Assembly (NCBI GenBank): GCA_963807605.1
Contig: CAWECG010000003.1
Location: forward strand, 896,001 to 960,000
Reading direction: 5' to 3'
DNA length: 64,000 nt
Source of the DNA: Candidatus Bathyarchaeota archaeon
GTDB lineage: Archaea; Thermoproteota; Bathyarchaeia; 40CM-2-53-6; RBG-13-38-9
Under the pieces are notes generated by a model. It had not been told where the DNA came from and did not search any database. It saw only the letters and a list, made by a program, of their open reading frames with translations. Positions 5,109-56,469 of the stretch are shown piece by piece. Both the position numbers and the translations under genes were made by a program. Numbering within the stretch: position 1 is the stretch's first letter; each line of letters starts with the position of its first letter.

Positions 5109-5356
5109 AATCTATATACATTAACGTGTAAATTCCCCTTGTAAGAATGTACTGTTTTTTGTATAGAACAGATATAAGATACAGAGCCAAAGGCGTTAGT
5201 GTACAGCGATGAAAAGCTGGCGGAACGCAATATTTTGCTACTGCACTTGGTCTGTCATTAAACATATTGACACTAAGAGGCATGGATTGAACATCGGAAA
5301 GGACTGGCACAACAATCAGAAGCATCTACGGCTTGGTTATTTGGAGGCTAGCTGAG

Positions 5357-5623
5357 ATGCCAAGCTTTGTCGTAGAGATAGTTATTGAGAACAAGAAGAT
5401 GGCCCGAGATCCTGAGGGCGAAACTATAGCTAGAGAATTGATCAATAGAGAGGGATTCTCAGCAATAAAGAGTGTAAGAACGGGTAAATATTTGCGATTA
5501 CTCGTTGAGGCAGTAGACAAAGAAGAGGCGGAGCAACTTGTCACAAGAATGTCCAATACACTCAGAATATTCAACCCCGTAGTTCACACCTGCAACATCC
5601 GCGCTAAGAGTGAGGTAGAGTGA
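5357..5623 (+). CDS. purS: FGAM synthase subunit PurS
   Basis: DPEGETI, VRTGK, IFNPVV; first gene of purSQL; ATG 5357 follows GGAGG. Confidence 0.92.
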   Translation: MPSFVVEIVIENKKMARDPEGETIARELINREGFSAIKSVRTGKYLRLLVEAVDKEEAEQLVTRMSNTLRIFNPVVHTCNIRAKSEVE

Positions 5624-6312
5624 AGGTCGCAGTAATACAATTTCCAGGCTCAAACTGTGACCTCGATGTCTTTCACGTTCTCAGGAATGTCCTCGGAGTG
5701 GAAGTGGACTTAGTTTGGCACAGAAGTTTTGAAGCTGAAGATTGTGATGCAGCTGTTCTACCAGGGGGTTTCTCTTACGGCGATTATCTCAGAGCTGGAA
5801 TAATCGCAGCCCATAGCCCCGCCATGAGACACATAAAAGAGATGGCAAAACAGGGAAAGCCCATAATCGGGATCTGCAACGGCTTTCAGATACTTATAGA
5901 ATCAGGACTCTTGCCAGGAGCGCTCCTAAGAAATCAAGGTATGATGTTTATCTGTAAGTGGGTCAAGCTCAAGGTTGAGACTGAGAATACCCCATTCACA
6001 AAGGCTACAGCAAAGGGTACTATTCTTGACATGCCAATAGCGCATGCTGAGGGGAGATACGTCAACGAACCTGAAGGTCTTAGAGAACTACACGAAAATG
6101 ATCAGGTTGTTTTCACATATACAGACACGCAAGGTAACCTTACCCAGGCAGGAAACCCAAACGGCTCTGTGGACTGCATAGCAGGTATATGTAACCTAGA
6201 AAGGAACGTCCTCGGCCTTATGCCTCATCCTGAGAGAGCTTCCGAATCGATACTCAGTCCATTCTCGGATAATGACGGTCTTCAAATTCTGAGAGTATTC
6301 ACTGAGATGTGA
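5620..6312 (+). CDS. purQ: FGAM synthase glutaminase subunit PurQ
   Basis: QFPGSNCD, PGGFSYGDYLRAG, GICNGFQIL, GLMPHPER. Confidence 0.97.
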   Translation: MKVAVIQFPGSNCDLDVFHVLRNVLGVEVDLVWHRSFEAEDCDAAVLPGGFSYGDYLRAGIIAAHSPAMRHIKEMAKQGKPIIGICNGFQILIESGLLPGALLRNQGMMFICKWVKLKVETENTPFTKATAKGTILDMPIAHAEGRYVNEPEGLRELHENDQVVFTYTDTQGNLTQAGNPNGSVDCIAGICNLERNVLGLMPHPERASESILSPFSDNDGLQILRVFTEM

Positions 6313-6323
6313 GGAGCTAGGTT

Positions 6324-8537
6324 GTGGAAACTACAGCAACGATCAAAATTAACCTGACTCCTAAGGAGCAGACAGAGGCTTACAGAAGACTGGGCAGAGA
6401 CGCAAACGAGACTGAGCTCGGAATGATAGACATAATGTGGTCTGAGCACTGCTCTTACAAGAGTAGCAGAGAAGTCCTACGGCGACTCCCGATAAGTGGA
6501 AGAAGAGTAGTTGTTGGACCAGGATACGATTCAGGTGTGGTGGACATTGGTGACGGCGACGTCATTGCATTCAAGATTGAGAGCCACAATCATCCGTCGG
6601 CAATAGAACCTTACAACGGGGCCGCAACAGGGATAGGCGGTATAATCAGAGACATTCTTTGCATGAACTGTAGGCCTATCGGCCTCCTAGATTCCTTACG
6701 ATTTGGAAATCTAAGTAGCAGTCACAGTAGATGGCTCTTCCATAACGTGGTAAAGGGAATAGCTGACTACGGTAACTGCACTGGAATCCCAACTGTAGCT
6801 GGTGAGGTTGAATTTGACGATAGTTTTGAAACTAATTGTCTGGTCAACGTTGCATGCTTTGGCTTCGGGAAGGCTAGAGATCTTACTCTCGGGAGAATGG
6901 ATCGACCCGGCGACGTCATCATTCTAGCAGGAGGAGCAACAGGCAGAGACGGCATACATGGTGTCACATTCGCGTCTAAGGTCATCAGTGAGGAATCCGA
7001 ATTAGACAGACCTGCAGTTCAGATCGGCGATCCCTTCACCAAGAAATTGGTCATTGAGGCCACACTCGAAGCTTTGAAAACAGGCAAAGTAAGGGGAGTT
7101 AAAGACTTAGGTGGGGGAGGATTGACTTGCGCTCTGTCAGAGATGTCAAGTAAGGGCGGCACGGGTGTCGAGGTAGATCTAGAAAAGATACACATCAGAG
7201 AGCAAGGGATGACGCCCTATGAGCTGTTACTTTCGGAATCTCAAGAGAGAATGCTATTCACTGTCGTTCCTGAAGGTCAGGAAGAAATCTTCAATATATT
7301 TCAAAAATGGGGGCTTCCATTCTCAACCATAGGAAAGGTGACAGGAACCGGTCGTCTGGTGGCCAGAAATCATGGCAGGTCAGTTGTAGATATTCCATCA
7401 AAACTCCTAACTCACTCCCCTCTTGCACGAAGAACAGTAAGAAAGCCTAAGGCTTTAGATAAAGGAGCAACTTCAAAATATCCTGCTCCAAAGAATCTGG
7501 CAAGTATACTATATCATATTTTGTCGAATTCGAACGTAGCTAGTAAAGAAGTTGTCTATAGACAATACGATCATGAAGTTGGAGCAAGAACCGTGCTGAA
7601 ACCTGGCGATGCCGATGCAGCAGTCCTAAGGATGATCGGCAGCGATAAGGCTATCGCAGTTAAAGTTGACTGTAATAGCTCGTATTGCCACCTCAACCCA
7701 TACCACGGTCATGCTGTAGCCGTAGCAGAAGCAGCTCGAAACGTCATTGCTGTAGGCGCTAAACCAATCGCCATAACTGACTGCTGCAACTTCGGTAATC
7801 CAGAGAACCCCGAGGTCTATTGGCAATTTAGAGAGGCAATTCGAGGGATTACATACATGCTAAAGGGCTTGAGGATACCATGCGTGGGGGGAAACGTTAG
7901 CTTCTATAATGAGGACCAGAAAACGGGGAGAGCCATCAAGCCTACAACAATGATAGTGATGCTAGGCCTGATCGAAAAGCTGAGTCTTGTGACCAATATG
8001 TTCCTCAAGAAAGATGGAGAATCAATAATTGTTGTGGGAAGGACTCTTCCTGAGTTGGGCGGCTCACAATACCACAGAATCATGAATGTAAAGGGAGGTA
8101 GCCCACCGCGAGCTGTCGTCTCCAGAGAGAAAGCCTCCACACGGACTGTAATTGAGGCAATTCGAAAGGGGTATGTTACGGCAGCTCATGATTGCTCGAA
8201 GGGGGGACTTGCCATATCCCTTGCCGAGATGACCATCAAGGGAGGACTAGGATTGACAGTTGACCTTAAGACTATTCCACGTTCACCAACCATGAGATCT
8301 GATGAAATACTCTTTTCTGAGTCATCGGCCAGATTTATAGTGACTACAACAAGAGCCCAGACAACAAAGTTACTTCGTTTGGCGAGGAAAAATGGTGCCC
8401 CCGCGGCGAGAATAGGCGAAGTTTCAAGATCAGGTTATGCGATCACTTCGGGATCGAAAAAACTGATCGAATACCCAGTTGAGCGTATGCAGGAGGCTTG
8501 GCGAAGCGCAATTCCTCAAGCTATGGAGAGTACATGA
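6324..8537 (+). CDS. purL: FGAM synthase subunit PurL
   Basis: MWSEHCSYKSS, ESHNHPS, GAATGIGGIIRD, DLGGGGL, SESQERM, GGNVSFYN. Confidence 0.97.
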   Translation: METTATIKINLTPKEQTEAYRRLGRDANETELGMIDIMWSEHCSYKSSREVLRRLPISGRRVVVGPGYDSGVVDIGDGDVIAFKIESHNHPSAIEPYNGAATGIGGIIRDILCMNCRPIGLLDSLRFGNLSSSHSRWLFHNVVKGIADYGNCTGIPTVAGEVEFDDSFETNCLVNVACFGFGKARDLTLGRMDRPGDVIILAGGATGRDGIHGVTFASKVISEESELDRPAVQIGDPFTKKLVIEATLEALKTGKVRGVKDLGGGGLTCALSEMSSKGGTGVEVDLEKIHIREQGMTPYELLLSESQERMLFTVVPEGQEEIFNIFQKWGLPFSTIGKVTGTGRLVARNHGRSVVDIPSKLLTHSPLARRTVRKPKALDKGATSKYPAPKNLASILYHILSNSNVASKEVVYRQYDHEVGARTVLKPGDADAAVLRMIGSDKAIAVKVDCNSSYCHLNPYHGHAVAVAEAARNVIAVGAKPIAITDCCNFGNPENPEVYWQFREAIRGITYMLKGLRIPCVGGNVSFYNEDQKTGRAIKPTTMIVMLGLIEKLSLVTNMFLKKDGESIIVVGRTLPELGGSQYHRIMNVKGGSPPRAVVSREKASTRTVIEAIRKGYVTAAHDCSKGGLAISLAEMTIKGGLGLTVDLKTIPRSPTMRSDEILFSESSARFIVTTTRAQTTKLLRLARKNGAPAARIGEVSRSGYAITSGSKKLIEYPVERMQEAWRSAIPQAMEST

Positions 8538-8538
8538 A

Positions 8539-9981
8539 ATGAAAGGCTTCGAAAGGCCGAAGAGGGATGCTTGCGGGGTTTTCGGGCTCTTCAATCCCAA
8601 ACACGACGTTGTCAGCAATATCTACTACGGACTAATGTCTCTTCAGCATAGAGGTCAGGAAGCCGCAGGAATCTCAACAATCAAGGATGGGACAATATCA
8701 ACCCGAAGGGTCTGGGGTTTAGTTTCTCAAAACCTTAGGCCCAAACTGTGGAGGCTCTCAGGCCACATGGGAATAGGTCATGTTAGGTACTCAACAACAG
8801 GGACTTCAACGTTGGCCAATGCTCAGCCGATGACAGATAGAATTTTCTCATTTGCACATAATGGTAACCTTGCCAACTACATGGATATCAGAAGAAGGAT
8901 GGAGAATCAAGGGCTCAGACTTAAGGCAAAAAGCGATGCAGAACTAATGTTAAGATTATTCAGAGCTAACTATGAAAGGTGCGGAGACTATGTCAAAGCC
9001 TTCGAAGAGCTGTCCTACCAGGTCGAAGGTGGATACTCAATCGTAATACTCACAAGAAACCGAGAATTGATTGCGGCAAGGGACCCTCTTGGTCTGAGAC
9101 CACTCTGCCAAGGAGAAATGGGAGAGGCAGTAGCATTTGCATCAGAGAGCGTAGCTCTGGACAGCAACAACATGAAAATTACTGGGGATGTGAAACCCGG
9201 CTCAATAGTTGTAGCTACTGAGAACACGTGCGACCAGTGGCAGTATCTTCCCTGCGAACGGAAGGCCCACTGCATGTTCGAATATGTCTATTTCAGTCGT
9301 GTCGATTCGGTTCTTGAAGGAAAGAGTGTATACGATGTCAGGTTCAACTTAGGTGTCAACCTAGCAAAGACCTATGACACCAAACCTGATGTCGTAATTC
9401 CTGTCCCTGACACTTCTAGAACAGCAGCTGAAGGTTACTCCAGCTACACGGGGATTCCAGTAGCTGAAGGCCTGATAAAAAACAGATATGTTCACAGAAC
9501 GTTCATCATGCCGAGACAGAGGGATTGAGATGCTGCCATGAAACTGAAGATAAATCCTCTCAAGTCAGTGGTCTCGGGGAAAGAAGTTCTCATAATAGAT
9601 GACAGCATAGTCAGGGGTACCACAAGCAGAGCAATAGTCGATATGGTTAGAACTGCTGGGGCCAAGAAGGTGTATATGATGAGCACATGCCCCCCCATCG
9701 TCTCTCCATGTTTCTACGGAATAGACATTGCAACATACAGTGAATTGATTGCAGCAAAAATGGATGTCGAGAATATTAGAACAAAGATAAAGGCTGATGG
9801 TCTAGGCTATCAAACTCTTGACGGCCTCATCAAAGCCATTGGGCTAACGAAAGAGGATCTATGCCTAGGATGTCTTACAGGTGAATACCCAACACCTTAT
9901 GCACAGAAGATTCTGGAGTCGATTAAAGAGAAAACAAAAACCAGTAGTGTTAGGCTGTGGGAGACTGAGCTCTCAGCTTGA
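8539..9981 (+). CDS. purF: Amidophosphoribosyltransferase, interrupted by an in-frame TGA at 9526-9528 (sequence error or nonsense allele)
   Basis: [33 protein letters not shown], then [12 protein letters not shown] and CFYGID in the same frame after the stop. Confidence 0.93.
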
Positions 9982-10391
9982 AGACAGACCAACCCGAGAA
10001 AGAGAAGCTTGTGGCTGTCGTGATCGGTAGCCAGAGTGATATGCCCATCGCTGAAAAGGCAATCAGAGTACTAGACGAATTCCGGATACCGTATGAACTT
10101 ACAACACTCTCTGCTCATAGAAATCCAAAGGAACTTGAAGAATACGTAGAGTCTTCAAAGGCCTTGATTTTCATAGCTATAGCAGGACTATCCGCACAAT
10201 TACCCGGATTCATAGCGTCGAGAACCTCTAAGCCGGTAATAGGCGTCCCAGTAAATGTCAAGCTTGAGGGTTTAGATGCGCTTTTGTCAATCCTGCAAAT
10301 GCCTAAAGGAGTGCCAGTAGCAACAGTAGGAATTGACAATGGCGAGAACGCCGCCCTTTTTGCTGCAAGAATCCTGTCAATGCTCAACTAA
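9978..10391 (+). CDS. purE: AIR carboxylase / N5-CAIR mutase PurE
   Basis: [37 protein letters not shown]. Confidence 0.95.
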
Positions 10392-10413
10392 GATCCAAGT
10401 CGGAGAGATAAGG

Positions 10414-11478
10414 TTGGGCTGGAGCTATAAGAAAGCAGGCGTGGACCGTGACAAGATAAGAACAGCACACTCAACAATCGCAGAACTAATCCAGAGAACG
10501 TACAAGGTGAGAAAAGGAGAGTTTGGAGAAGTTCTTGCTGGATTCGGCCACTATGCATCCCTTATTGATATAGGTGAGGGAAGAGCCCTAGCCCTTCATT
10601 CCGACGGATGTGGAACCAAAGTCATCATCGCCCAGCTAATGAACAGATTCAGCACTATAGGTATAGACTGTGTCGCGATGTGCGTCAACGATCTCGTGTG
10701 CCTTGGAGCCGAGCCAACAACGTTAATCGACTATCTAGCGTTGGAGCGTCCGGACGACGCCATGGTAAACGAAATTATGGTAGGATTAGTCGAGGCCGCA
10801 GATAAAACAAGAATCACAATAATTGGCGGTGAGACGGCAATAATGCCTGATGTAATAAAGAGCGTTGTGCCGGGACGAGGATTTGATCTAGCAGCATTCT
10901 GTCTGGGCTTGGTCAGGAAAGACCAAATAGTGTGGGGAAACCGCCTTGAGCCGGACGATGTAATCCTTGGACTTAGGAGTAGCGGGGTACACAGTAATGG
11001 TCTCTCACTTGCAAGGAAAGTACTACTTGACGAGGCTAAACTTGATCTCAAGAAGAAGCCTCAAGAACTGCAACGAACCCTTGGAGAGGAACTTCTCGAA
11101 CCTACAACTATCTACCTAGAAGCCGTCATTCACGCAATTGAGAATTCTGATGTACACGCAGTAGCTCACATAACCGGAGGAGCCTTTACCAAGCTCAAAC
11201 GGTTCGAATCCTATTCCAAAGTTGGCTTCCGCCTAGATAAGATGCCTGAACCCCAACCCATCTTCAGACTGATACAGAAGCTAGGAAGGATAACCGATGA
11301 GGAGATGTATAGAACCTTCAACATGGGGATCGGCCTGTGCATCATGACCCCAAAGAAACATGTCAAAGAAGTAACGAAATCTTGCGAGGCCTCAGGTTTT
11401 GAGACCTATGATATTGGAAAAGTCACCGCCAAATCTGGAGTAAGCCTTGATTTGAGAGGCAGAACTATCACCCTGTAA
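10414..11478 (+). CDS. purM: AIR synthetase PurM
   Basis: YKKAGVD, DGCGTK, VAMCVND, GGETA, SSGVHSNG, HITGG, TFNMGIG; likely TTG start at 10414. Confidence 0.96.
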   Translation: MGWSYKKAGVDRDKIRTAHSTIAELIQRTYKVRKGEFGEVLAGFGHYASLIDIGEGRALALHSDGCGTKVIIAQLMNRFSTIGIDCVAMCVNDLVCLGAEPTTLIDYLALERPDDAMVNEIMVGLVEAADKTRITIIGGETAIMPDVIKSVVPGRGFDLAAFCLGLVRKDQIVWGNRLEPDDVILGLRSSGVHSNGLSLARKVLLDEAKLDLKKKPQELQRTLGEELLEPTTIYLEAVIHAIENSDVHAVAHITGGAFTKLKRFESYSKVGFRLDKMPEPQPIFRLIQKLGRITDEEMYRTFNMGIGLCIMTPKKHVKEVTKSCEASGFETYDIGKVTAKSGVSLDLRGRTITL

Positions 11479-13550: not shown

Positions 13551-15876
13551 TTGTTTATTCTTTTAAACAAACCTGATGCTAGACCGCCAATAAGAGGATC
13601 CGCATTGTCTTTGCCTTTCGAGAAGTCTGGAGTTGATATTCTTAATGCTGCCTCCTCACCCGTCAGGTTACGAATACTGAAACTGCTAAAGTCTAGGGGG
13701 CCCCTACCCTATACAGAAGTGATGTCCACACTCGGACTCGATCCGATAAGAGATGCTGGTAAATTCGTCTACCACCTCAAGAGTGTAACTGGAACCCGCT
13801 TGGTCGCACTTGATAAGAACTCAAAAAAATATGCGATAACAGAGCTTGGCGAGATAGTAGTCAGTTTTGAGAGGGACTTGGAAGAGTACGTTGCAGCGAA
13901 GAAAGGGAAGCTTTATGTCAGAACATCTAGGTTATCGCTAGAAGAATTTGAGCGGGAGAAGATAGTAAACTCGCTTGTAAGCGAGGCTGGTGTCCCCTAC
14001 GAGCTGGCCCAAGAGATAGCTGCAGAGGCTGAAGAGAGGCTACTAAGGCTTAGAACGAGTTATTTGACAGCACCCTTGATAAGGGAATTCATTAATGCAA
14101 TACTCATTGAGAAAAGGCTTGAGGACTATCGACATAAACTTACAAGATTAGGGATGCCCGTATACGATGTTTCGGAGCTACTGAAGTACTCAAGCGAGAA
14201 GATGCTTAACGCCCAAGCTGTAAAAGATACCGCTGGCAGTTCAGTCATCGAAGAGTATGTCCTTCTAAATTCTCTTCCGAGAAATATTGCTGATGCTCAT
14301 CTCTCTGGAGCCTTGCATATTGACAATCTGGGAGAATGGATTCTCAGGCCAAGCGAGGTGTTACATGATCTCCCGATTCTTCTTCAAGCATGGTCTGCCA
14401 ACAAAGAAGGCTCCAAGGACATTCCAAAGTGCCTTAGCGATGGCACAACTAGTCTATCAACTTGCAAGAAATGAAGTAGCTAGCGAACAATGCTTTGACA
14501 TGTTCAATGTATTCTTAGCTCCATTTGCGTCAAAACTCTCAAAGGAGCAAATAAAAGATGCACTCTATCAATTCTTCACAAGTATCAGACAGGATGCTTA
14601 TTCATATGACTTCAATAATGGTCTCTCCTTGGGTTTCGAAGTTAACGTCCCAAGATTCCTCGATAACACTAAGGTAATAGGACCCGAAGGTTCCAGTCTA
14701 GAAAAGTACTCTGATTACGTCGAGGTGGCGGATGAGATTCTTGAGGCAGCAGTAGACATCGCAACTGAGGTGTCTCAAGAGAAGCCTCTTTTCAATCCTC
14801 GTTTCATAATCAAGTTAAGGGGCACGGAATCAGGGGGCAAAAGACATGACAGCCTAATGATGAAGATCCATCAACTCGCAACTAAGACTTTCCTTCCATA
14901 CTTTGCAAATCTGGAAGATGACGAAAAAGCCGCTTATACTGCTACAGGCTTGAGAATTGATAACTCTTGGACTGGTAATTGGGAAGACGATTGTATGAGA
15001 ACAGGCAATGCAGATAGCATCTTTCTCAATCTCCCTAGAATAGCTTACGAATCACGTAGAAAGATCGATAGATTCCAAAGCATACTTGAAATGCATCTTA
15101 ATCTCGCGAGCGAAGCTCTCCAACGAAAGAGCGAGATTCTCAAAGAGAGGCTTCAACAATCGCTTCTTCCACTTCTATCGGGGGTCAACGGAGACTCCTA
15201 TTTTATCGAGAAGAACTCAACGTATGCAATAAGTTTCCTAGGGCTGAATGAAGCTGTCAAAACGTTCATAGAATCACCCCTGATTGGAAGCGAGAGAGCC
15301 TTAGAATTCGCTTCGAAAATAATGAAATGGATAGGTGACTTCGCGGAGTCTGCCTCAAAGAAGTCAGGCAATCGGTTTGTTGTAGCACAGAGACCCCAAG
15401 ATGAGGCTTCCTTCAGGCTCGCCAAACTTGACATTGCGAAATATGGTCCGGGGCAGATTGCGAGCGAAGGAATCAGGGATTATCCATACTATACAGACTT
15501 GTTTACAGTACCGCTTTCAGCAAAAATAGATCTCAAAGAGCGAATATCTCTGGAGAGCAAGTTCCAGGAGAGTTCTTCTGGAGGACACCTAGCGTCTATC
15601 TGTCTAGCTCCGATAGAACAGGATCCCAAACAACTAATCAATTTGACAGAACAATTGTGCAATGGTAAGTTGCATTTCTTCACCTACACCAGTAATCTTT
15701 CCTACTGCAAAAGATGCAACAAGACATTTCTTGGCACGGCTTCAACATGCCCTCAATGTGGCTCCACAAACCTCATAGTATTCGGAAGATCGTCGGCAAC
15801 CTACATGCCACTTGAGCTGTGGCCCGAAGCTAAGAGAAGAGATATCGAGAGCAGAACCATATATTCCATATCTTAA
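13551..15876 (+). CDS. wHTH + ATP-cone + degenerate class III ribonucleotide reductase (NrdD-like) fusion; one +1 frameshift at about 14372
   Basis: ArsR-like N-terminus (SSPVRLRILKLL...GKFVYHLK); archaeal NrdD cone (VRTS...YLTAPLIRE...TRLGMPVYD); AHLSGALHI, RTGN...LNLPRIA, SFLGLNEA, GGH and CxxC-CxxC Zn site. Removing one C from CTCCCGA joins the two ORFs as HDL-RFFFKHGL. Confidence 0.85.
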
Positions 15877-23337: not shown

Positions 23338-24240
23338 TCATAGGTTCGGCAGATCAGATTTTGTGGGTAGACCATTTCTACCACCGTATTCACTGATACA
23401 TCGTAAGGCCACGAAATTTCCTAGTTTACCACAAATATACAGATCTTTTTCATTCAGTAGACCGTATAGAAAGCCAGCGCAGAAGGCGTCACCCGCTCCA
23501 GTTGTATCTTTAGGTTTCTTCTTGTGTGCTGGAATTAGGTAGCTCTCTCTACCGTCGGTGATGTAACATCCTCTCTCGCCCAACTTCACAGCTATTGTCT
23601 CTACTCCTCGAGCGAGGAGATCCTTTGAACCTCTCCTGTAGTCCTTCTTCGTCATACTTCTCAACTCGTTCTCATTTGGAAGAAAGACTGATGTTCTCTT
23701 AAGAATCGGATCCAAGGCTCGAAGTCCTCTCTTGGCGTAGAGTGCACCTGGGTCAAGACTAACCCACGCCTTTTTGGAATTCTTGACCAAATGGTTCTGG
23801 GCATTGAATGGCGCGTCCCCGACAAACGATGTTAGATGAAGGATCTTTGATGAATCTGCATAAGTCACCTCGACTTCCCTAGAGGTGAGCTTATCGTTCA
23901 CCCCTGGGTCGATGTATAGTGCCCTTTCCCCACTATCATCCACGAGACCTATACAGACGCCGGTTCTTCCATTTTTTGAAATTATTACTCCACTAGTGTC
24001 TATTCCCTCTCTTTTGATGTCACCAAGAAGGTATCTGCCTTCTGGGTCATTGGTCAACTTGCCGATATATCCTGTGTTCAACCCGAGCCGGGCCAATCCC
24101 ACTATGGTATTCGCAGCTGAGCCTCCAGCGGAGACTGTTAGACTCTTTACAAATGTTTCCTCTCCTGCTCCAGCTATCTTATCGACGCTGTATAGCTTAT
24201 CTAAATTGAGCGCTCCGAAGCCTACCACATCTAGCCTCAA
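23338..24240 (-). CDS. PfkB/ribokinase-family kinase (EhaT-like)
   Basis: [30 protein letters not shown]. Confidence 0.9.
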
Positions 24241-25151
24241 ATGAATAACCCTCGTAAGCCCACTCGGTATCGTCCGAGTTTTCCTCCGTAGTTTCCAGCA
24301 GATATCTTGGTAACTTCAGGCATATCCCAGATGCTTTCTATACCAGCTTTCATTGCTTTGGAGACCGTAGGTAAGGAGACACCGTTTATGACAATTTCCG
24401 GTATATAGTTAACATCTTCAGGAACTTTAGAGCGACTTCCTAGTTTCTCCCTCAAAGACGGACAGTAGACCTCGTTGGTTGTTGGTCCGATCCAAGGAAA
24501 TTTGGTTTCTGGTTTTGAGCCTGCTGAACATATGTTAAATGGTGTTACTGCCCCATAAATGTGATGAACTGCTTCCAGAGCTCTTTTTCCCGCCTCAAAC
24601 ACTGCTTTCTTGCTTCTGCACATATACCAGAAGTTTCCCCCCATCACGCCAAGATTGTATCCCAAATATCTCTCTATTCGAAAGTTGGGAATCATTATTG
24701 GGATGTTTATGATCCTTCTACCCCTGTATTCTTCTTCCCACTCAAAGCCGTCACCGCAGTGACCAACCCTTTCCATGGTGTCTATCTGACCAACTGAGTC
24801 TTCAAGTGCGTTGAAGACTGCTGTGAACGGCTTGACAAGAATGTCCTGCCTTATTCTGTAAGAAAGCTCAACCTCAAACTTTTTGATAGAGTCCTGCAAA
24901 GGCTTGGATGTGTCTATGCCCCCCCAAAACTGGATGATTGCGCCCTTGCGGCCATCAGGGGTATCTTCATTTGAAATGAACTCCTCGATACCGCCTTCGA
25001 CTCTTCCAATCACAATGGATGGCGTGCTCGTAGAGTCGTCAGCGGCAGCCTTCAGAGTTTCATCGTCTTCAGCGGTCACGATGATTCTCACGAAGACTCC
25101 TTCAAATGCTTCTGCGTATGTATCTTCCAGTTTTTCTATTCCCATTTTCAA
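24237..25151 (-). CDS. ftr: Divergent formylmethanofuran:H4MPT formyltransferase paralog (EhaS/FtrII-like)
   Basis: [43 protein letters not shown]. Has [12 protein letters not shown] in place of canonical RIGQCVLTxPTT. Confidence 0.85.
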
Positions 25152-25163
25152 ACCTCGTTTCGA

Positions 25164-26243
25164 TTACCCCAAGCTTCCGACGACTTCGCCTCTAACCTTC
25201 TTTCTAAAAAGGCAACTTTCCTTTGTCAATCTTTCCTTATTACCCTCGGATATTGCTTCGACTTGAGGAAGTTTACTTCCATAGACCTCCACTGATAATG
25301 CATACATTTGTTCACCACAGATCTTTTTTATCGATTCGTATCCCCAACTTGACACAAGCATCTTCACAGCCTCTCTTCCTCCGTTATTGAAAGCAAGGCT
25401 AAGTATGCCTATTGCAAGTGTATTCTCCGAAAGCACTGCAAGCTCCGCTTCTCTGATTGCGTACTCGTTTCCGTTAAAAGAGATTGGAAGACCCTGATTT
25501 TCTTTGACATACCTGAGTGGTGCTGAGTCGGTTATGCTATCTCCGATGTAGATCACTTGTCTTGGCTTACAGAGATTCTTTTCAATTATATCTTTGACGG
25601 CTTCGACTTTCTCCGCTCCGCCGACAGGCCTAACTTCCCTGATAATTCTTCCAGCGGCCATCTTCTGGATCTTAGACCAAAAGATATCGTCAAGATACCC
25701 AATGGTTTCTTGATCCTGTCTTTCAAGGTCTGTAACGGAGCGTGCATCAATAGGAATGGTTGGCAGTGGCAGTTTAGCCAATTCACTTGCCCAAGATCTG
25801 AGTTTATCGTTCTCCCAATTGGGGATCTGAAATTGATCAAGATCAAGCTTGGTACAATAGACACTAATCATAGGAAAGTTCGTGAGTCTGCATAATGCTT
25901 GGATGTACTGTTCATAGCTGGTGCTTACTATGAACGAGGGCATTAACCTCCTCACAAGTGAGAGCGTCTCCCTCGCTCTAGGGATCAGAACGACCCCTTC
26001 AGCGGAAAGTTCTCTCAGCACTTCATTCGTTGCGCCAAAAGCCTTCAGGAAGGGAAGGATGAGCTTTAATGTATCACCAGGCCTGTAGCCGGGCCTTTTT
26101 ACCAGATCAGCCTGCACATCATCATATTTGCTGAGTAGCGTGAATAGTGCAGCGCCTTCAGGAATTAGCTTGTCCGTAAGCTCAAATGCGTTATCGTTCT
26201 TAGAAATCGGTCCTTCACAATCTGTTACGAAAATCCTCTTCAC
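25164..26243 (-). CDS. HAD-superfamily hydrolase (EhaR-like)
   Basis: FVTDCEGPISKNDNA (motif I variant DxE), IVSTS, GGAEK, YIGDSITD, SFNGNEYA. Confidence 0.8.
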   Translation of the reverse strand: MKRIFVTDCEGPISKNDNAFELTDKLIPEGAALFTLLSKYDDVQADLVKRPGYRPGDTLKLILPFLKAFGATNEVLRELSAEGVVLIPRARETLSLVRRLMPSFIVSTSYEQYIQALCRLTNFPMISVYCTKLDLDQFQIPNWENDKLRSWASELAKLPLPTIPIDARSVTDLERQDQETIGYLDDIFWSKIQKMAAGRIIREVRPVGGAEKVEAVKDIIEKNLCKPRQVIYIGDSITDSAPLRYVKENQGLPISFNGNEYAIREAELAVLSENTLAIGILSLAFNNGGREAVKMLVSSWGYESIKKICGEQMYALSVEVYGSKLPQVEAISEGNKERLTKESCLFRKKVRGEVVGSLG

Positions 26244-27676
26244 GCCATCCTCAGCCGCTTCATGTGTTCGATACTCTTACCGATATGTTCTCGGGATGCG
26301 ATATCGCTTCTATACCACAAGGCGCCTCCACGGATCCTCTTTATTCCCTCAAGAGCAAACTCTCTTGCCTCCTCTATTGTTGCCGCTGTCCCAACTGAAG
26401 AGATTGTTCTTGAGGAGAGTGAGTAGAGGTTACCATCAGATCGCACTTCAATAGAACCAGGATAGATCCTAAGATTGAGGAAATTTGCCTGTTCATATTG
26501 TATAGCATCACCAAGATATATTGGCGAGTCTTTCTCTTTCGTGGAGACTCTGGTTGGATATTGCGTGAAATAACCGCCATACGACAGAGGAGCTTTGTAG
26601 ATAACCACACTTGACATAGGTTTGATTCGGACTGACTGGAGTTCACCATCGATCATCTTCAGGCAGATCTCAACAAAATCTTGATCTACTATCGGCAGAA
26701 TATTCTGAATCTCGGGATCCCCCGGTCGACTGTTTATTTCAAGAACCTTAGGTCCGTCAGCCGAATGCATGAATGCAACGTAGAAGGGAATACCCCTCAG
26801 GTTAGCGTTGTTTCCTCCTCCGGAGAACTCTCTGAAGATGTTCTCCGCTATCTTAACCTCCTCGCTCATATCCGACGGTCCCATGAAAGGAAGCAAGTTC
26901 CCTGTGCCCTTGTATGAACCCATGCCGCCCGTGTTTGGTCCCTTATCTCCCTCAAAGGCCCTCTTGTAATCTCGAGTCTCAGGGAGAGCAAGCAAGTGTC
27001 TTCCGTCACAGAAAGCTTGGAAACTTGATTCCTCGCCGTCTATCTTCTCTTCGACTATGACTTTCTCACTTCCTCCTCCATATATCGAATAGAAGTGGAG
27101 GTAGGCTTCCTGCATAGAGAAGAAGTGTTCGCCACCAACGCCAACTCCTTTGCCGAAACCAGGCCTATCAGGTTTTATCACAACATTCTCTGGGCCTCCA
27201 AGCTGAGTCAGCCATTCTTCAAAATCAGGTCTGGGCTCAGCTCCCAAGTTCTTTGGGTCAAAGACTTTGAACAAAGGATTCGCTTTCGGTGCACACTCTT
27301 GGAGCAGGCGTCTTTGGGAGACCTTGCTGCCCTCGATCGCATACTCACGTGTCGGGCACACAAGTGGAATGCCAGTCTGCTTCTCGATGAGATCTCGGAT
27401 ACCCTGAATTATTGGTCCTTCAGAACCAACTATACCAAAACGTATCTTATCTCTATACTTCTCTGCAAAGTTGCAGATCTCATTAAGCGAGAGATCTGGG
27501 ATAACCCTGTGTTCTCCACTGTTCTCAACTTTCTTGATATTGAAAGGATTGGATTGTTTGTCAGCTATGTAGAACTCTACATTGTATTCTTCGCTTCGGG
27601 ACAAGGCGTCGACTATAGCCACGTCTCGTGAGCCATAACTGACAACTAGGACGCCAATCTTTTCCATCCGGTTCAT
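26240..27676 (-). CDS. purD: Phosphoribosylamine-glycine ligase (divergent PurD)
   Basis: EGSK, KPD..GFGKGV, EEKIDGEE.S, DYKRAFEGDKGPNTGGMGS, EINSRPGDPE. Confidence 0.88.
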   Translation of the reverse strand: MNRMEKIGVLVVSYGSRDVAIVDALSRSEEYNVEFYIADKQSNPFNIKKVENSGEHRVIPDLSLNEICNFAEKYRDKIRFGIVGSEGPIIQGIRDLIEKQTGIPLVCPTREYAIEGSKVSQRRLLQECAPKANPLFKVFDPKNLGAEPRPDFEEWLTQLGGPENVVIKPDRPGFGKGVGVGGEHFFSMQEAYLHFYSIYGGGSEKVIVEEKIDGEESSFQAFCDGRHLLALPETRDYKRAFEGDKGPNTGGMGSYKGTGNLLPFMGPSDMSEEVKIAENIFREFSGGGNNANLRGIPFYVAFMHSADGPKVLEINSRPGDPEIQNILPIVDQDFVEICLKMIDGELQSVRIKPMSSVVIYKAPLSYGGYFTQYPTRVSTKEKDSPIYLGDAIQYEQANFLNLRIYPGSIEVRSDGNLYSLSSRTISSVGTAATIEEAREFALEGIKRIRGGALWYRSDIASREHIGKSIEHMKRLRMA

Positions 27677-27684
27677 CTTACTTT

Positions 27685-28500
27685 CTAGTTTGTCAGCAAG
27701 GTTCTTGATTTCTCAGTTGCCTTAATTACAGCTTTCATCAAAGTTGCGCGTATCATACCTTCCTCAAGTTGCAGTAGTCCCTCAATGGTAGCGCCCCCAG
27801 GGGTAGTGACCATATCTTTCAGTTTAGCTGGATGCTCCTTCGTTTCAAGAACCATCTTAGCAGCTCCCAATGCAGTCTGCGCAGCTAGAAGAGTTGCCAA
27901 GTTCCTTTCCAACCCAACTTTTACTCCACCATCACTCAGAGCCTCTATCATAGTGTAAATGTAGGCGGGGCCGCTCCCACTTAATGCCGTAATTGCATCC
28001 AGATGCTTCTCATCGACAACCACAACTCTGCCGACCGAACTGAAGATCTTCTCAGCCAACGCAATACTTTCAGGTGAGCAATTTGGTCCTTTGGAAAGTG
28101 CAACCATACCCTCGCCAACGAGAACAGCTACATTCGGCATTGCTCGAACTATTGGAATGTCACCTCCAAGAATCTTCGAAAAGAACTCTGCAGACACACC
28201 TGAAACCAATGTGATGATAAGCTGCCTCGTTGTGATGAACATCTTGATACTTTCAGCAGCACTCTTCGCGTCTTTAGGTTTCACCGCGATGACGATCACA
28301 TTGCATTTATGTGCTACCTTGAAGATGTCTGAGTCGCACTTTATGCCATACGCTTTCGATACGTATTGACAACGTTCCTTTAGTAGGTCAGCAGCAAAAA
28401 GTCTGGAGGGTTCAAGGACTTTTTCAGATAATAGACCTCGTATCAGAGCCTCACCCATCTTGCCTGCTCCAACTATACATGCCTTCAAGTCTTCAATCAT
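27685..28500 (-). CDS. proC: Pyrroline-5-carboxylate reductase
   Basis: GAGKMG, AVKP, RAMPN, ALSGSGPAY, VTTPGGAT. Confidence 0.95.
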   Translation of the reverse strand: MIEDLKACIVGAGKMGEALIRGLLSEKVLEPSRLFAADLLKERCQYVSKAYGIKCDSDIFKVAHKCNVIVIAVKPKDAKSAAESIKMFITTRQLIITLVSGVSAEFFSKILGGDIPIVRAMPNVAVLVGEGMVALSKGPNCSPESIALAEKIFSSVGRVVVVDEKHLDAITALSGSGPAYIYTMIEALSDGGVKVGLERNLATLLAAQTALGAAKMVLETKEHPAKLKDMVTTPGGATIEGLLQLEEGMIRATLMKAVIKATEKSRTLLTN

Positions 28501-50911: not shown

Positions 50912-53900
50912 ATGGCTACAGTATCGGAAGAGACCTACAAGATCGTAGACGGCATAAGATTCTCACTGCTTTCGCCGAACGAGATCAGGAAACTCTCAAC
51001 CGTCGAGGTACAGACGGCAGACACGTACGACGAGGATGGAGTTCCAATAGTTTCAGGTCTTATGGATGGGCGACTGGGAACTCTGGAACCTAGGCAGAAA
51101 TGTAGAACCTGTGGAAATACAGCTATGGCCTGTCCAGGTCACTTCGGCCATATCGAACTTGCGGAACCAGTCATCCACGTATCGTTCGTGAAGCTTATCC
51201 ATCGTCTATTGGCAGTGACTTGTAGAAACTGTGGGAGGATCCTTCTATCGGACGAGAAAATAAAAGAATATGATGATAAGATTAAGGAAGTCAGGGTTCG
51301 CCTGAATACAGTGCCCGAATCCCTGTACAAGAAGATACTCAAACATGCAAAGAAGACCATGGAGTGCCCACACTGTGGCACCCAGCAATATCCAATAGAG
51401 CTCGTCAAACCAACATCATTCCATGAAGCCGTCGAAGGAGGAGCGCCCAAGATTCCTCCAAGCGCAATAAGGGAAAGGCTGGAGAGGATTCCAGACGATG
51501 ATTTAAAGCTTTTGGGAATAGACCCACAATCTGCAAGACCAGAATGGATGATACTTCAAGTTCTACCGGTCCCCCCGGTCAGCGTTAGACCGTCCATAAC
51601 ACTTGAGTCCGGAATAAGATCTGAAGACGACCTGACACACAAACTTGTAGATATAATCAGGATCAATCAGAAACTAGGTGAAGCTCTAGAGTCAGGTGTC
51701 CCCATAAACATAATTCAAGAACTTCACGATCTCTTACAATACCACGTCACCACCTACTTTGATAACGAAGTATCAGGACTACCTCCTGCAAGACACCGTT
51801 CAGGAAGAGCCCTGAAGACCATATGCCAAAGACTCAAAGGTAAAGAGGGAAGATTCAGAGGAAATCTCTCTGGAAAACGTGTGGACTTCTCCGCTCGAAC
51901 AGTCATCTCGCCAGACCTAAACCTAGACATAAATGAGGTCGGGGTGCCGGTCGAGCTGGCTTCAAGACTGACCATACCAGAGAAGGTTACTGACTGGAAC
52001 CTAGAGCAGATGAAACAGCTCATACGTAACGGCCCGGACCAGTATCCCGGAGCACTCTACATCGTCCGAACTGACGGAAGAAGGATCAGGCTAGAGTTCG
52101 TACCCGAGAGGGAGAGCATAGCGGAAGGTCTGCAAGCCGGCTTCATAGTTGAGAGACACATCAAGGACGGCGACATAGTCCTCTTCAACAGGCAACCCTC
52201 ACTGCACAGAATGTCGATTATGGCTCACGCCGTCAAGGTTCTTCCCTTCAAAACCTTCAGACTCAACCCATGCGTCTGTCCACCATACAACGCGGACTTT
52301 GATGGTGACGAGATGAACCTCCATGTCCCACAGGGTGAAGAAGCTAGGACCGAGGCGCGACTCCTCATGCAGGTCCAAGACCAGATACTGTCCCCGCGAT
52401 ATGGAGGACCTATAATAGGCGCGATAAGAGATCTTCTCAGTTCGGCCTTTCTCTTAACAGCTAAAGGAACTCGACTCACAGCAGAGGAGGTAGGGAGGCT
52501 AACTGCCGCCGCAGGTTACGTCGGAGAGCTTCCCGAACCTGATGTTCAAAGGATCAAAACCCACGTGGTCTGGAAAGTCAATATTCAGCCTCTTCATACC
52601 AAAGGGCCTCAACTTCACCTCGAAATCCAACATCTGCAATGTGTACAAATGCCTCGACTGCAAGAAAGAGAAGTGCCCACACGACTCCTACATCGTGATA
52701 AAGGATGGAGTTTTGAAGCAAGGAGTGATAGACAAGAACTCGATAGGTGCAGAGAGATCCGAGAGCCTCTTCCACAGAATCATAAAAGATTATGGATCCA
52801 CAACAGCAAGAGAATTCCTCAATTCCATAGCAAAACTCCTTGACAGATTCATAACCTTGAAAGGATTCACATACGCCTTCGATGAACTTGCGATCTCAGA
52901 AGAGGTCAAAGACAAAATCAGGAAGGCAACTGAGAAAGCTGAAGAAAAGGTCAATGGCCTAATCGAGAGCTACAGGAAAGGAACCCTTGAGAGACTAGCG
53001 GGTCAATCGCTTGAAGAGAGCCTAGAGATATACATAATGAATGAGCTGTCGAGAGTCAGAGACCTTGCAGGTGAATATGCCGACCAGTATTTCCCAGCGG
53101 ATAATGATGGAATAATAATGACGAGGGCGGGAGCAAGGGGCTCAATGCTGAATATAGGACAGATGACGGCTTGCCTAGGTCAACAATCAATCAGAGGCAA
53201 AAGGATCCTTAGGGGATATCGTGACAGAACACTCCCGTTCTTCGAACCTAACGATGCAGGAGCAGAAGCACGGGGTTTCGTCTACTCCTCATACAGGGAT
53301 GGGCTCAGCCCGATAGAATTCTTCTTCCACGCCATCGGCGGCAGAGAGGGCCTCGTCGACACGGCAGTACGAACCCAACAAAGCGGCTACATGCAGAGAC
53401 GTTTAATCAACGCTCTGGAACACCTCAGGGTTGAGTATGACGGCACGGTGAGGGACTCAAGCGGCAACATAATCCAGTTCAAGTACGGTGAGGACGGCAT
53501 CGACACAGCGAAGAGCGACCATGGAAAGGCGGTGAACATTGAGCGGCTGGTTGAAAGAGTCAGACTCTTCTCAGAGAAAGGTGCCGCAGCTAGCAAGAAC
53601 TACATAGAATCCAAGATCGATTTGATTGCAGACAGACTGACTCCAAGCCTAGTTGATGAATTGAGAAGATACCTGCTCGGAGTGAAACTCACACGCAAGG
53701 GCGTTGATCAAGTCCTAAATCTAACTATAGAGAGCTATGTCCGATCGCTAATTGAACCTGGGGAGGCTGCCGGAATAGTCTCAGCACAGTCGATAGGCGA
53801 ACCGGGAACCCAGATGACCCTAAGGACATTCCACTTCGCAGGAGTCAAAGAACAGAACGTAACGCTTGGACTCCCAAGACTCATTGAGATTGTTGACGCT

Positions 53901-54746
53901 AGAAAGATTCCTTCAACACCGACCATGACCATTTATCTTGAGAAGAAATATCGCAACAAGAGAGAAAAAGCAGAGGAGGTAGCCAACGCGATCACATTCG
54001 CAACTCTAGAGGACATCTGTGAGAGTATAGTCTCAGACATAACGAAGATGAAGATTATGGCAACGCTAAGCCCTACAATGATGAAGGAGAGAGCAATAGC
54101 ATTACAAGAGGTTCGTGAAGCACTAAAGCCACCGAACTGCCAAGTCAAGATAGACCGGTTCGATGTGGAAGTAACTCCGAAAGAAATGGAGATACCTCAG
54201 TTCAAACGGTTCGCAACACGCCTAAGGCAGTTCAGATTGAAAGGAGCCCCCTCTGTCAAGCGAGCACTGGTCCTAGAGGATCAAGGCGAATGGATCATAA
54301 GGACCGAAGGCTCAGGTTTGGACTTCGCCCTAGAACTACCCATGGTAGACAAGACAAGAACGATCTCAAACAACGTACATGAAGTCGCAGAGGTTCTAGG
54401 AATAGAGGCAGCGAGGAACGTTACAATCAAAGAAGCTATGGGTGTGCTTGAAGAACAAGGACTCGATGTAGACATCAGACACGTCATGCTGGTGGCTGAT
54501 ATGATGACCAACTCAGGCGTAGTTCTCCAAGTTGGAAGACACGGAATCAGTGGAGAGAAAGCCTCAACGTTGGCGAAGGCTGCCTTTGAGATCACAATCC
54601 CTACAATAGTGGACGCATCAATCAAAGGCACCAGAGATATGCTCAGAGGAGTTGCCGAGAATGTTATCGTCGGCCGACAGATACCTATGGGAACAGGACT
54701 GATAGACGTCTACATGTCAATGCCAGAGAAGGAGACCAACAAATGA
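50912..54746 (+). CDS. rpoA: RNA polymerase subunit A, fused A'+A'' (Rpo1); +1 frameshift at about 52545
   Basis: CPGHFGHI, NADFDGDEMN; second frame continues WSGK..., DTAVRT, YGEDG and runs without a stop into A'' motifs QSIGEPGTQMT, GLPRL and ENVIVG. Confidence 0.95.
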
Positions 54747-55572: not shown

Positions 55573-56469
55573 GTGGAGATAGAGGATACCTTCGCAGAAG
55601 CATTTCCTATGTATATTGGTAGATACTTAGTTACAGCCTCAACCAGACGTTGGGCCCTAGCATCAGCTCAAGAAATGAAAGGTCTAGGGGTCTCAGCAAC
55701 ACTCGGACCCGGAGAAGCAGGGATCGAGCGCGAAGTAACTATTGAAGAGTCACCTGATCACAGACCAGGATATCTATTGAACGTGGGACATAGAGAGAAG
55801 AAAGAACTCAACTACTGGCTGATCGCCAGAATAAGGAAAGGAGTGCTTCCTACTCCTACAACATCAGCCTTCGATGTCATGCCCAAAGAGATGGTTCAAT
55901 ATTACGTTGATGTTAAGGATACGCCCATACAGCTCTTCGGGGATGGATACGAAGAATTAGTTGAGAGAGAGGGACGAGCCGTCTATAAAATCCCGAGGAT
56001 GGATGGCTTCTGCTATATTGAGACAAGATTTGGGGTTGCGCGAGGCATAGGAGGCGGTAACTTTCTAATCTTGGGCGAATCGCAAGGGTCGGCCCTTATG
56101 GCAGCCGAGGTTGCTGTTGACTCCATGAAAGAGGTGCCATACGTATTCAATCCGTGTGCTGGCGGAATAGCCGCATCCGGAACAAAGGTAGGAGGAAAAA
56201 GATACAAAGACGCTGTTGCAACAACAAACGATCCTTACTGTCCAACAATCAAAGACCGGGTTGAGGAGAGTAAGATTCCTCAAGGAGTTAATTGCGTCTA
56301 TGAGGTCTTCATCAACGGCTTGGATCTGACCTCTGTCGAGAAGGCTATGAAGGTTGGGATAAGGGCAGCCACGACAGTAGGTGGTGTGAAGAAGATTTCA
56401 GCGGGCAACTACGGGGGTAACCTCGGCAAGATCCTAATCCCGCTTACCAAAGTCCTAGAAATGCATTGA
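55573..56469 (+). CDS. ftr: Formylmethanofuran:H4MPT formyltransferase homolog (second paralog)
   Basis: [59 protein letters not shown]. Confidence 0.88.
   Translation: MEIEDTFAEAFPMYIGRYLVTASTRRWALASAQEMKGLGVSATLGPGEAGIEREVTIEESPDHRPGYLLNVGHREKKELNYWLIARIRKGVLPTPTTSAFDVMPKEMVQYYVDVKDTPIQLFGDGYEELVEREGRAVYKIPRMDGFCYIETRFGVARGIGGGNFLILGESQGSALMAAEVAVDSMKEVPYVFNPCAGGIAASGTKVGGKRYKDAVATTNDPYCPTIKDRVEESKIPQGVNCVYEVFINGLDLTSVEKAMKVGIRAATTVGGVKKISAGNYGGNLGKILIPLTKVLEMH

Follow-up and report, generated by a model that had tools for sequence, protein, structure and literature searches.

The 64,000-nucleotide stretch of DNA analysed here (the window; positions 896,001 to 960,000 of contig CAWECG010000003.1, assembly GCA_963807605.1, Candidatus Bathyarchaeota archaeon) contains, directly behind purD, a trio of genes encoding a haloacid dehalogenase (HAD) family protein, a paralog of formylmethanofuran:tetrahydromethanopterin (H4MPT) formyltransferase (Ftr) and a ribokinase-family (PfkB) kinase (Table 1). 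These three proteins, homologous to EhaR, EhaS and EhaT, respectively, probably act in step 3 of purine synthesis in place of glycinamide ribonucleotide (GAR) transformylase, as judged from their linkage to purD, their mutual exclusion with PurN and PurT, and the replacement of EhaS by a GAR-transformylase-type enzyme in some genomes.

The preliminary description of this DNA had reported the four genes as co-oriented and tightly coupled, and the sequence bears this out. There are 4-nt overlaps at the purD/HAD junction (GTGA, 26240–26243) and the EhaS/PfkB junction (TTGA, 24237–24240), and a 12-bp gap between the HAD and EhaS genes with the TTG start at 25151 (18 bp if the ATG two codons later is used). 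The description had omitted proC, which lies 8 bp upstream of purD; this gene is a local addition, present in 9 of 80 relatives, and is outside the module. The separate purSQLFEM cluster contains neither purN nor purT, as had been noted, and neither canonical PurN (Formyl_trans_N) nor PurT has a match across the whole genome (2.65 Mb, 94% complete). FolD, PurH and Fhs were likewise not found in the genome, which holds two purP copies. The absence of hydrogenase genes near the trio also proved correct, and the Eha-specific subunits EhaG, EhaH, EhaL and EhaM are without match in the genome, the window included. The purF gene in the window carries one in-frame TGA (9526–9528), with both halves aligning to the intact purF of relatives, and this may reflect faulty sequencing or a nonsense mutation of recent origin; the case made here thus rests on the relatives.

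Table 1. Trio genes with neighbouring and purine-related features of the window
Feature	Position	Strand	Length (aa)	Remarks
purD, GAR synthetase	26240..27676	-	478	Families GARS_N/A/C; sole purD of the genome
EhaR-family HAD protein (COG4030/K14109, AF1437 homolog)	25164..26243	-	359	Weak Pfam HAD match; proposed GAR 5'-phosphatase
EhaS/Ftr2, formylmethanofuran:H4MPT formyltransferase paralog	24237..25151	-	304	FTR and FTR_C; proposed step-3 formyltransferase
EhaT, ribokinase-family (PfkB) kinase	23338..24240	-	300	Proposed formylglycinamide riboside 5'-kinase
proC	27685..28500	-		Co-oriented with purD
purS-purQ-purL-purF-purE-purM cluster	5333..11478	+		Separate from the trio

Protein features and conserved neighbourhood of the trio

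Families were assigned with Pfam and NCBIfam profiles. PurD scores 238.7 bits with TIGR00877, under the cut-off of 288, and is of a divergent type, where the N-terminal loop reads SYGSRD and the RPGDPE motif is retained. The HAD protein contains the motifs D8-x-E10-G11, S107-T108, K212 and G234-D235-x3-D239. Motifs II–IV are intact, motif I is D-x-E(-G) in place of D-x-D in 262 of 266 homologs, and the Pfam HAD match is below cut-off. Its sole relative with a solved structure is AF1437 (PDB 1Y8A; E 8e-27), and for close relatives in Bathyarchaeia the Joint Genome Institute uses the name 'energy-converting hydrogenase A subunit R'. In two proteins, P0196 (899 aa) and P0208 (961 aa), the EhaR HAD is fused behind an N-terminal region of 530–590 aa without clear family, for which P0208 gives a faint ATP-grasp match.

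EhaS belongs to the Ftr superfamily, as it contains FTR and FTR_C, the two-lobed fold, and the active-site serine (S212) and glutamate (E252), the latter aligning with the EIV-motif glutamate of FhcD, which is an oxyanion stabiliser (PMC6926001). The fold and the active-site Ser/Glu are common to Ftr1 (EC 2.3.1.101; PDB 1FTR/2FHJ, 1M5H, 1M5S), FhcD (6S6Y) and the 'Ftr2' clade, and Ftr1 is the only characterised Ftr type (PMC9012536). The predicted model of EhaS (predicted local distance difference test score, 91.5) matches Ftr with a Z-score of about 35 (34–35) and a root-mean-square deviation of 2.2–2.4 Å. With 226 bits against the TIGR03119 cut-off of 292.6, EhaS is not placed in Ftr1. It is 34% identical to the genome's own Ftr1, which adjoins mtd, and falls in a clade apart from Ftr1 in the Ftr tree (support 100, long branch), a paralog distinct from the canonical Ftr. 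Invariant changes in this clade include F>C132, G>R101, G>E215 and L>I221, and unlike Ftr1, EhaS travels with the HAD protein and the kinase, not with methanogenesis genes. The third Ftr copy of the genome, at window positions 55573–56469 (+), lies between rpo-nusA genes and ribosomal protein S12; it is 45% identical to the genome's Ftr1 and 32% to EhaS, and sits on a long branch. EhaT (PF00294, 174.6 bits) keeps the ribose-binding and catalytic motifs N-x-D, GGSAAN and GAGD, and falls below cut-off for every NCBIfam equivalog (ribokinase, ribose-1-phosphate kinase, nucleoside kinase), belonging to no named subfamily.

Among 80 other Bathyarchaeia HAD loci, purD is present in 79, EhaS in 63, PfkB in 58, purF in 39, purQ in 31 and purL in 30. 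As purD is found in all but one of these loci, its adjacency to the HAD gene is not due to chance, nor is it unique to this contig; the recurrent pur-gene neighbourhood, proposed earlier as a check, is thus general. The usual layout is purF-purD-HAD-EhaS-PfkB opposite purQ-purL-purS-purM. In one genome (G025) the trio adjoins a purD of the other, conventional type (26% identical), indicating that the linkage outlasts purD replacement.

The three genes of the window, HAD, Ftr-like and ribokinase-like, are homologous to the tail of the eha operon and correspond in family and order to EhaR-EhaS-EhaT of Methanothermobacter (ehaA-T tail, PMC3087415; K14109/COG4030; AF1437). This relationship, already put forward in the preliminary description, was seen in a Methanobrevibacter contig, where ehaF to ehaQ are followed by HAD-FTR-PfkB, closing the operon. 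As compared with the trio of the Methanobrevibacter phylum, which is intact in 50/50 genomes fetched, the proteins are 36–47% (HAD), 52–63% (EhaS) and 37–58% (kinase) identical, some of the comparisons being partial. Unlike the Methanothermobacter eha tail, the trio here is coupled to purD and is without Eha subunits. In Archaeoglobi, the HAD and kinase genes are often adjacent, with EhaS elsewhere.

Distribution of the trio relative to PurN and PurT

The genomes in the following samples are kin, and their counts are not independent events. Among 201 Bathyarchaeia, HAD was found in 85, EhaS in 78 (all HAD-positive), canonical PurN in 33 and PurT-like proteins in 10, and no genome of the 201 combines EhaS or HAD with canonical PurN or a PurT-like protein. 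The anticorrelation expected in the preliminary description is therefore observed, and extends to Halobacteriota, where EhaS and PurN coincide in 2 of 171 genomes. None of the three outcomes open to computation that would have spoken against the earlier interpretation was seen: this genome and nearly all carriers are without purN/purT, the adjacency to purD is widespread, and the Ftr paralog forms a clade of its own. The 116 HAD-negative Bathyarchaeia comprise 25 without a purD match and 91 with purD, the latter containing PurN (33), PurT (10), a long PurN-like protein (43) or none of these (5). Viewed the other way, HAD is present in 82 of the 87 purD-positive Bathyarchaeia without PurN, long PurN-like protein or PurT.

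The long PurN-like proteins (270–315 aa; L155:6928-7767, L156, L159, L167; families f17, f20, f25) score under the TIGR00639 cut-off. Four of them were read and contain the SGSGTN loop, N-x-H and the Asp, one being encoded between purD and purE; they are probably GAR transformylases overlooked by standard annotation. A 250-aa formyltransferase-like protein from family f20 was rejected as a PurN, as it belongs to another family and has no PurN loop. A 237-aa formyltransferase-fold protein (L150-L154, f20), also not PurN-like, is encoded beside methylthioadenosine phosphorylase, an adenosine-deaminase-like gene and CTP synthase.

Several apparent exceptions in Bathyarchaeia were removed on inspection. 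The 'purT' of G001 is actually PurK beside purE, the absence of EhaS from G056, G147 and G160 is explained by a contig end, and in G112 the PurN-like protein no longer contains N-x-H or the catalytic Asp. The G112 gene (L165:465-1304) lies in a folD-purH cluster of a trio-bearing genome.

In the Methanobrevibacter phylum, where the search covered HAD and purT, HAD is present in 91/91 genomes and purT in 0/91. The 171 Halobacteriota contain EhaS (70), HAD (71), PurN (91), or neither EhaS nor PurN (12); PurT was looked for in five Halobacteriota only, and the one genome checked among these 12 has PurT. The 70 EhaS carriers include 66 with a typical HAD protein and four that had seemed to lack one, in which a divergent 355-aa D-x-E-G HAD protein was found (in one case beside PfkB).

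The HAD protein is also present in Archaeoglobus fulgidus (AF1437), A. profundus, Methanopyrus kandleri and Methanobacteriales. Neither purN nor purT had been found in two Archaeoglobi, four Methanobacteriales (printed as Methanomicrobiales) and M. kandleri (PMC3261824), and ANME-1 (anaerobic methanotrophic archaea) has been added to the lineages without GAR formyltransferase (PMC9012536), in support of the earlier statement that several archaea have no recognisable GAR transformylase. The uncharacterised Ftr2 clade comprises proteins from ANME-1, ANME-2a/b, Archaeoglobales, M. kandleri and M. marburgensis, and its link with this gap was not drawn (PMC9012536). The trio occurs where purD is present and PurN and PurT are absent, with G411, G422 and ANME-2a/b as exceptions.

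Replacement of EhaS by PurN* and the phosphate-binding loop

Four Bathyarchaeia contain the HAD protein and the kinase without EhaS. In two EhaS-less Bathyarchaeia the gene order is purF-purD-PurN*-HAD-PfkB-folD, where PurN* is a divergent folate-type PurN; one of them has a split purH opposite, and the sole Ftr is canonical. PurN*-HAD-PfkB operons are also found in Chloroflexota without any Ftr and in one Latescibacteria contig, and two PurN*-HAD fusions were seen. The fold of PurN* is that of GAR transformylase, and N-x-H is kept in 120/120 and the catalytic Asp in 119/120 sequences (N106/H108/D144 triad), these being the catalytic residues named for the E. coli enzyme (PMC7926923). As PurN* replaces EhaS while the HAD protein and the kinase stay, an enzyme of the GAR-transformylase type is able to occupy the EhaS slot. 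The module had been called folate-independent, which holds for EhaS alone; it does not hold for the module, as the HAD protein and the kinase also serve the folate-type PurN* elsewhere.

A second pattern concerns the G11-S12-N13 loop of PurN, which we take to be the site binding the GAR phosphate. In the profile alignment, an invariant Asp of these PurN* proteins sits at the G11 position. Within the Chloroflexota sample, an intact-motif HAD protein is encoded adjacent to Asp-type PurN* in 17/17 cases, and PurN* read from HAD-negative genomes has a Gly loop in 19/19. Three Gly-type PurN* do have a neighbouring HAD gene, all of them eroded and without an adjacent kinase: conserved N-D-N-A and Y-D-D residues are missing from two, and both catalytic aspartates from the third. 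At two further Gly-type loci the kinase is kept and there is no HAD protein. In metagenome loci with enough flank, HAD lies within 3.5 kb of 41/44 Asp-type and 0/2 Gly-type PurN*. The PurN* tree contains about three Asp/Gly changes, each matching the HAD state.

Read most simply, this pattern would have the module's formyltransferase acting on a phosphate-free substrate. The covariation of the loop with the HAD protein indicates a dephosphorylation of GAR, formylation of the nucleoside and rephosphorylation, and gives independent support to the 5'-phosphate removal and restoration by a HAD/kinase pair that had been suggested from the window. Canonical PurN is present in 11/111 genomes of the Chloroflexota class concerned (probably Dehalococcoidia), and most genomes in that class probably have the Gly-loop PurN* (L255-L274) as a GAR transformylase that annotation has missed.

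Proposed route and alternative explanations

The following reactions, substrates, formyl donor and order of steps are inferred from the gene order, co-occurrence, PurN/PurT exclusion, EhaS/PurN* swap, intact motifs and loop-HAD covariation observed in these genomes. PurD would make GAR, from which the HAD protein (EhaR) would strip the 5'-phosphate. EhaS would then take formyl from a carrier of methanogen type, more likely N5-formyl-H4MPT than the alternative, formyl-methanofuran, and attach it to the glycinamide amine, which would stand in for the aminomethyl group of methanofuran. EhaT would finally put the phosphate back with ATP, giving formylglycinamide ribonucleotide (FGAR) for PurL. Where folate is used, PurN* with a blocked phosphate pocket would replace EhaS. 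For the reaction in which formyl-H4MPT passes its formyl group to the furan amine, the published value is +4.4 kJ/mol (PMC6926001). Transfer by EhaS should likewise be near equilibrium, so that the net ATP spent by the phosphatase and the kinase would pull it forward. The participation of the trio in step 3 is the firmest part of this proposal, and the full phosphate detour is somewhat favoured. The widest claim has an even chance, namely that this is a third, ancient step-3 route, a nucleoside-level detour in which an Ftr-fold enzyme draws C8 from the methanopterin/methanofuran pool, EhaR/S/T being purine enzymes and the folate version occurring in Chloroflexota and other bacteria.

The trio may work like PurN and PurT while being a member of neither. 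PurN (10-formyltetrahydrofolate GAR transformylase, EC 2.1.2.2; PDB 1CDE) has the same net reaction as that proposed for the trio, but needs a single enzyme, which works on the nucleotide, whereas three enzymes would proceed here via the nucleoside; unlike PurN, EhaS is of unrelated fold and would need no folate. PurT is folate-free, spends one ATP like the proposed route and takes the position behind purD in other Bathyarchaeia, but it belongs to the ATP-grasp enzymes, draws on formate through formyl phosphate and has no homology to the trio.

Several observations weigh against the route. The HAD motif I is D-x-E, not D-x-D, and EhaT reaches ribokinase and ribose-1-phosphate kinase models only below cut-off. 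Three Asp-type PurN* metagenome loci have no HAD gene nearby, and the Asp/Gly pattern reflects about three independent changes in the tree. If the long PurN-like proteins are discounted, HAD is present in only 82/130 purD-positive Bathyarchaeia without PurN or PurT. ANME-2a/2b are reported to have Ftr2 plus PurN (PMC9012536), and two Halobacteriota (G411 and G422) hold EhaS, HAD and a PurN with the loop SGRGTD. Four others (G421, G442, G450 and G457) have an intact HAD protein and kinase and, encoded in a folate cluster, a PurN close to the canonical form, with EhaS not found by profile search; the HAD-kinase pair in these four may be a leftover after a recent gain or have a separate job. Methanopterin as donor has been doubted for the N10-formyl form, and the labelling data were called inconsistent (PMC3261824). 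The in-frame stop in the genome's own purF is a further difficulty.

Direct formylation of GAR by EhaS (or PurN*), with the HAD protein and the kinase as off-path helpers that keep the GAR/FGAR pool in check or repair it, by dealing with overflow or salvaging nucleoside that has leaked, is unlikely. The exclusion and swap data speak for it too, the four Halobacteriota with an intact pair beside near-canonical PurN agree with it, and a phosphatase and a kinase placed on the main path would use up an ATP and invite futile cycling. HAD, however, is present in every EhaS carrier tested (78/78 in Bathyarchaeia; 70/70 in Halobacteriota including the divergent forms), which is tighter than a helper needs, and the loop Asp of PurN* tracks the HAD protein, which erodes where the loop has Gly.

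Quite unlikely is a detour in which the HAD protein, as a phosphotransferase, would pass the GAR phosphate to formylglycinamide riboside and the kinase would only prime or top up. Altered second positions of motif I slow hydrolysis in other HAD proteins, which together with the near-invariant D-x-E-G would suit this scheme, as would the kinase being the member most often apart from the HAD gene; it is adjacent in most archaeal loci, however, with its catalytic motifs kept. No likelier is a role of the trio in supplying or repairing one-carbon (C1) carriers (methanofuran/methanopterin formyl, formate or formyl phosphate) for another GAR formylase, or in a non-purine ribose pathway. The co-transcription with eha in Methanothermobacter (PMC3087415), the Ftr2 plus PurN of ANME-2a/b (PMC9012536) and the resemblance of the kinase to ribose-1-phosphate kinases are consistent with such a role, but EhaS is replaced in place, in Ftr-less bacteria, by an enzyme with the GAR-transformylase fold and catalytic triad, and the pur clusters examined contain no other conserved unknown gene.

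An earlier detour, in which the HAD protein takes the phosphate off phosphoribosylamine and the nucleoside is then the direct product of the divergent PurD, is very unlikely: the HAD-linked purD of Bathyarchaeia is indeed divergent with a changed N-terminal loop, but the same type is found in HAD-less genomes (G012, G058, G062 and G071), and a conventional purD lies beside the trio in G025. In print the trio is regarded as hydrogenase subunits that have no enzymatic role, EhaS and EhaT being so treated on the ground of co-transcription with ehaA-R in Methanothermobacter, for which reason a formyltransferase or kinase role was called 'very unlikely' (PMC3087415). That EhaR, EhaS and EhaT are subunits or accessories of the Eha hydrogenase, in keeping with the database name, fits the gene order of the Methanobrevibacter contig, but is extremely unlikely here and largely refuted by distribution, since this genome has no detectable Eha-specific subunits, the trio lies in pur clusters in Bathyarchaeia and is scattered in Archaeoglobi, and the HAD protein and kinase occur in bacteria.

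In the literature searched, no publication linking the trio to the missing purine step was found, nor any treating GAR transformylase, methanogens and formylmethanofuran together, nor any on AF1437, COG4030 or MTH402-403; none on glycinamide ribonucleoside was relevant, and no assay or mutant showing GAR conversion to FGAR or purine auxotrophy for the trio was found. The step-3 assignment offers genes that can be put to the test for an enzyme reported as missing from Archaeoglobi, Methanobacteriales and Methanopyrus in 2011, and from ANME-1 in 2022. If it is true, EhaR/S/T would be re-annotated, the Ftr2 clade and the structural-genomics protein AF1437 would gain a function, and purine C8 would be tied directly to the archaeal C1 pathway; a core pathway with a step at the level of a nucleoside would be unusual. 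Should Methanobrevibacter be unable to do without this step, and should animals lack it, it would be a possible target for lowering rumen methane.

Elsewhere in the window, rpoA' (50912–54746) and an nrdD-like region (13551–15876) are each split over overlapping frames, which suggests assembly indel errors.

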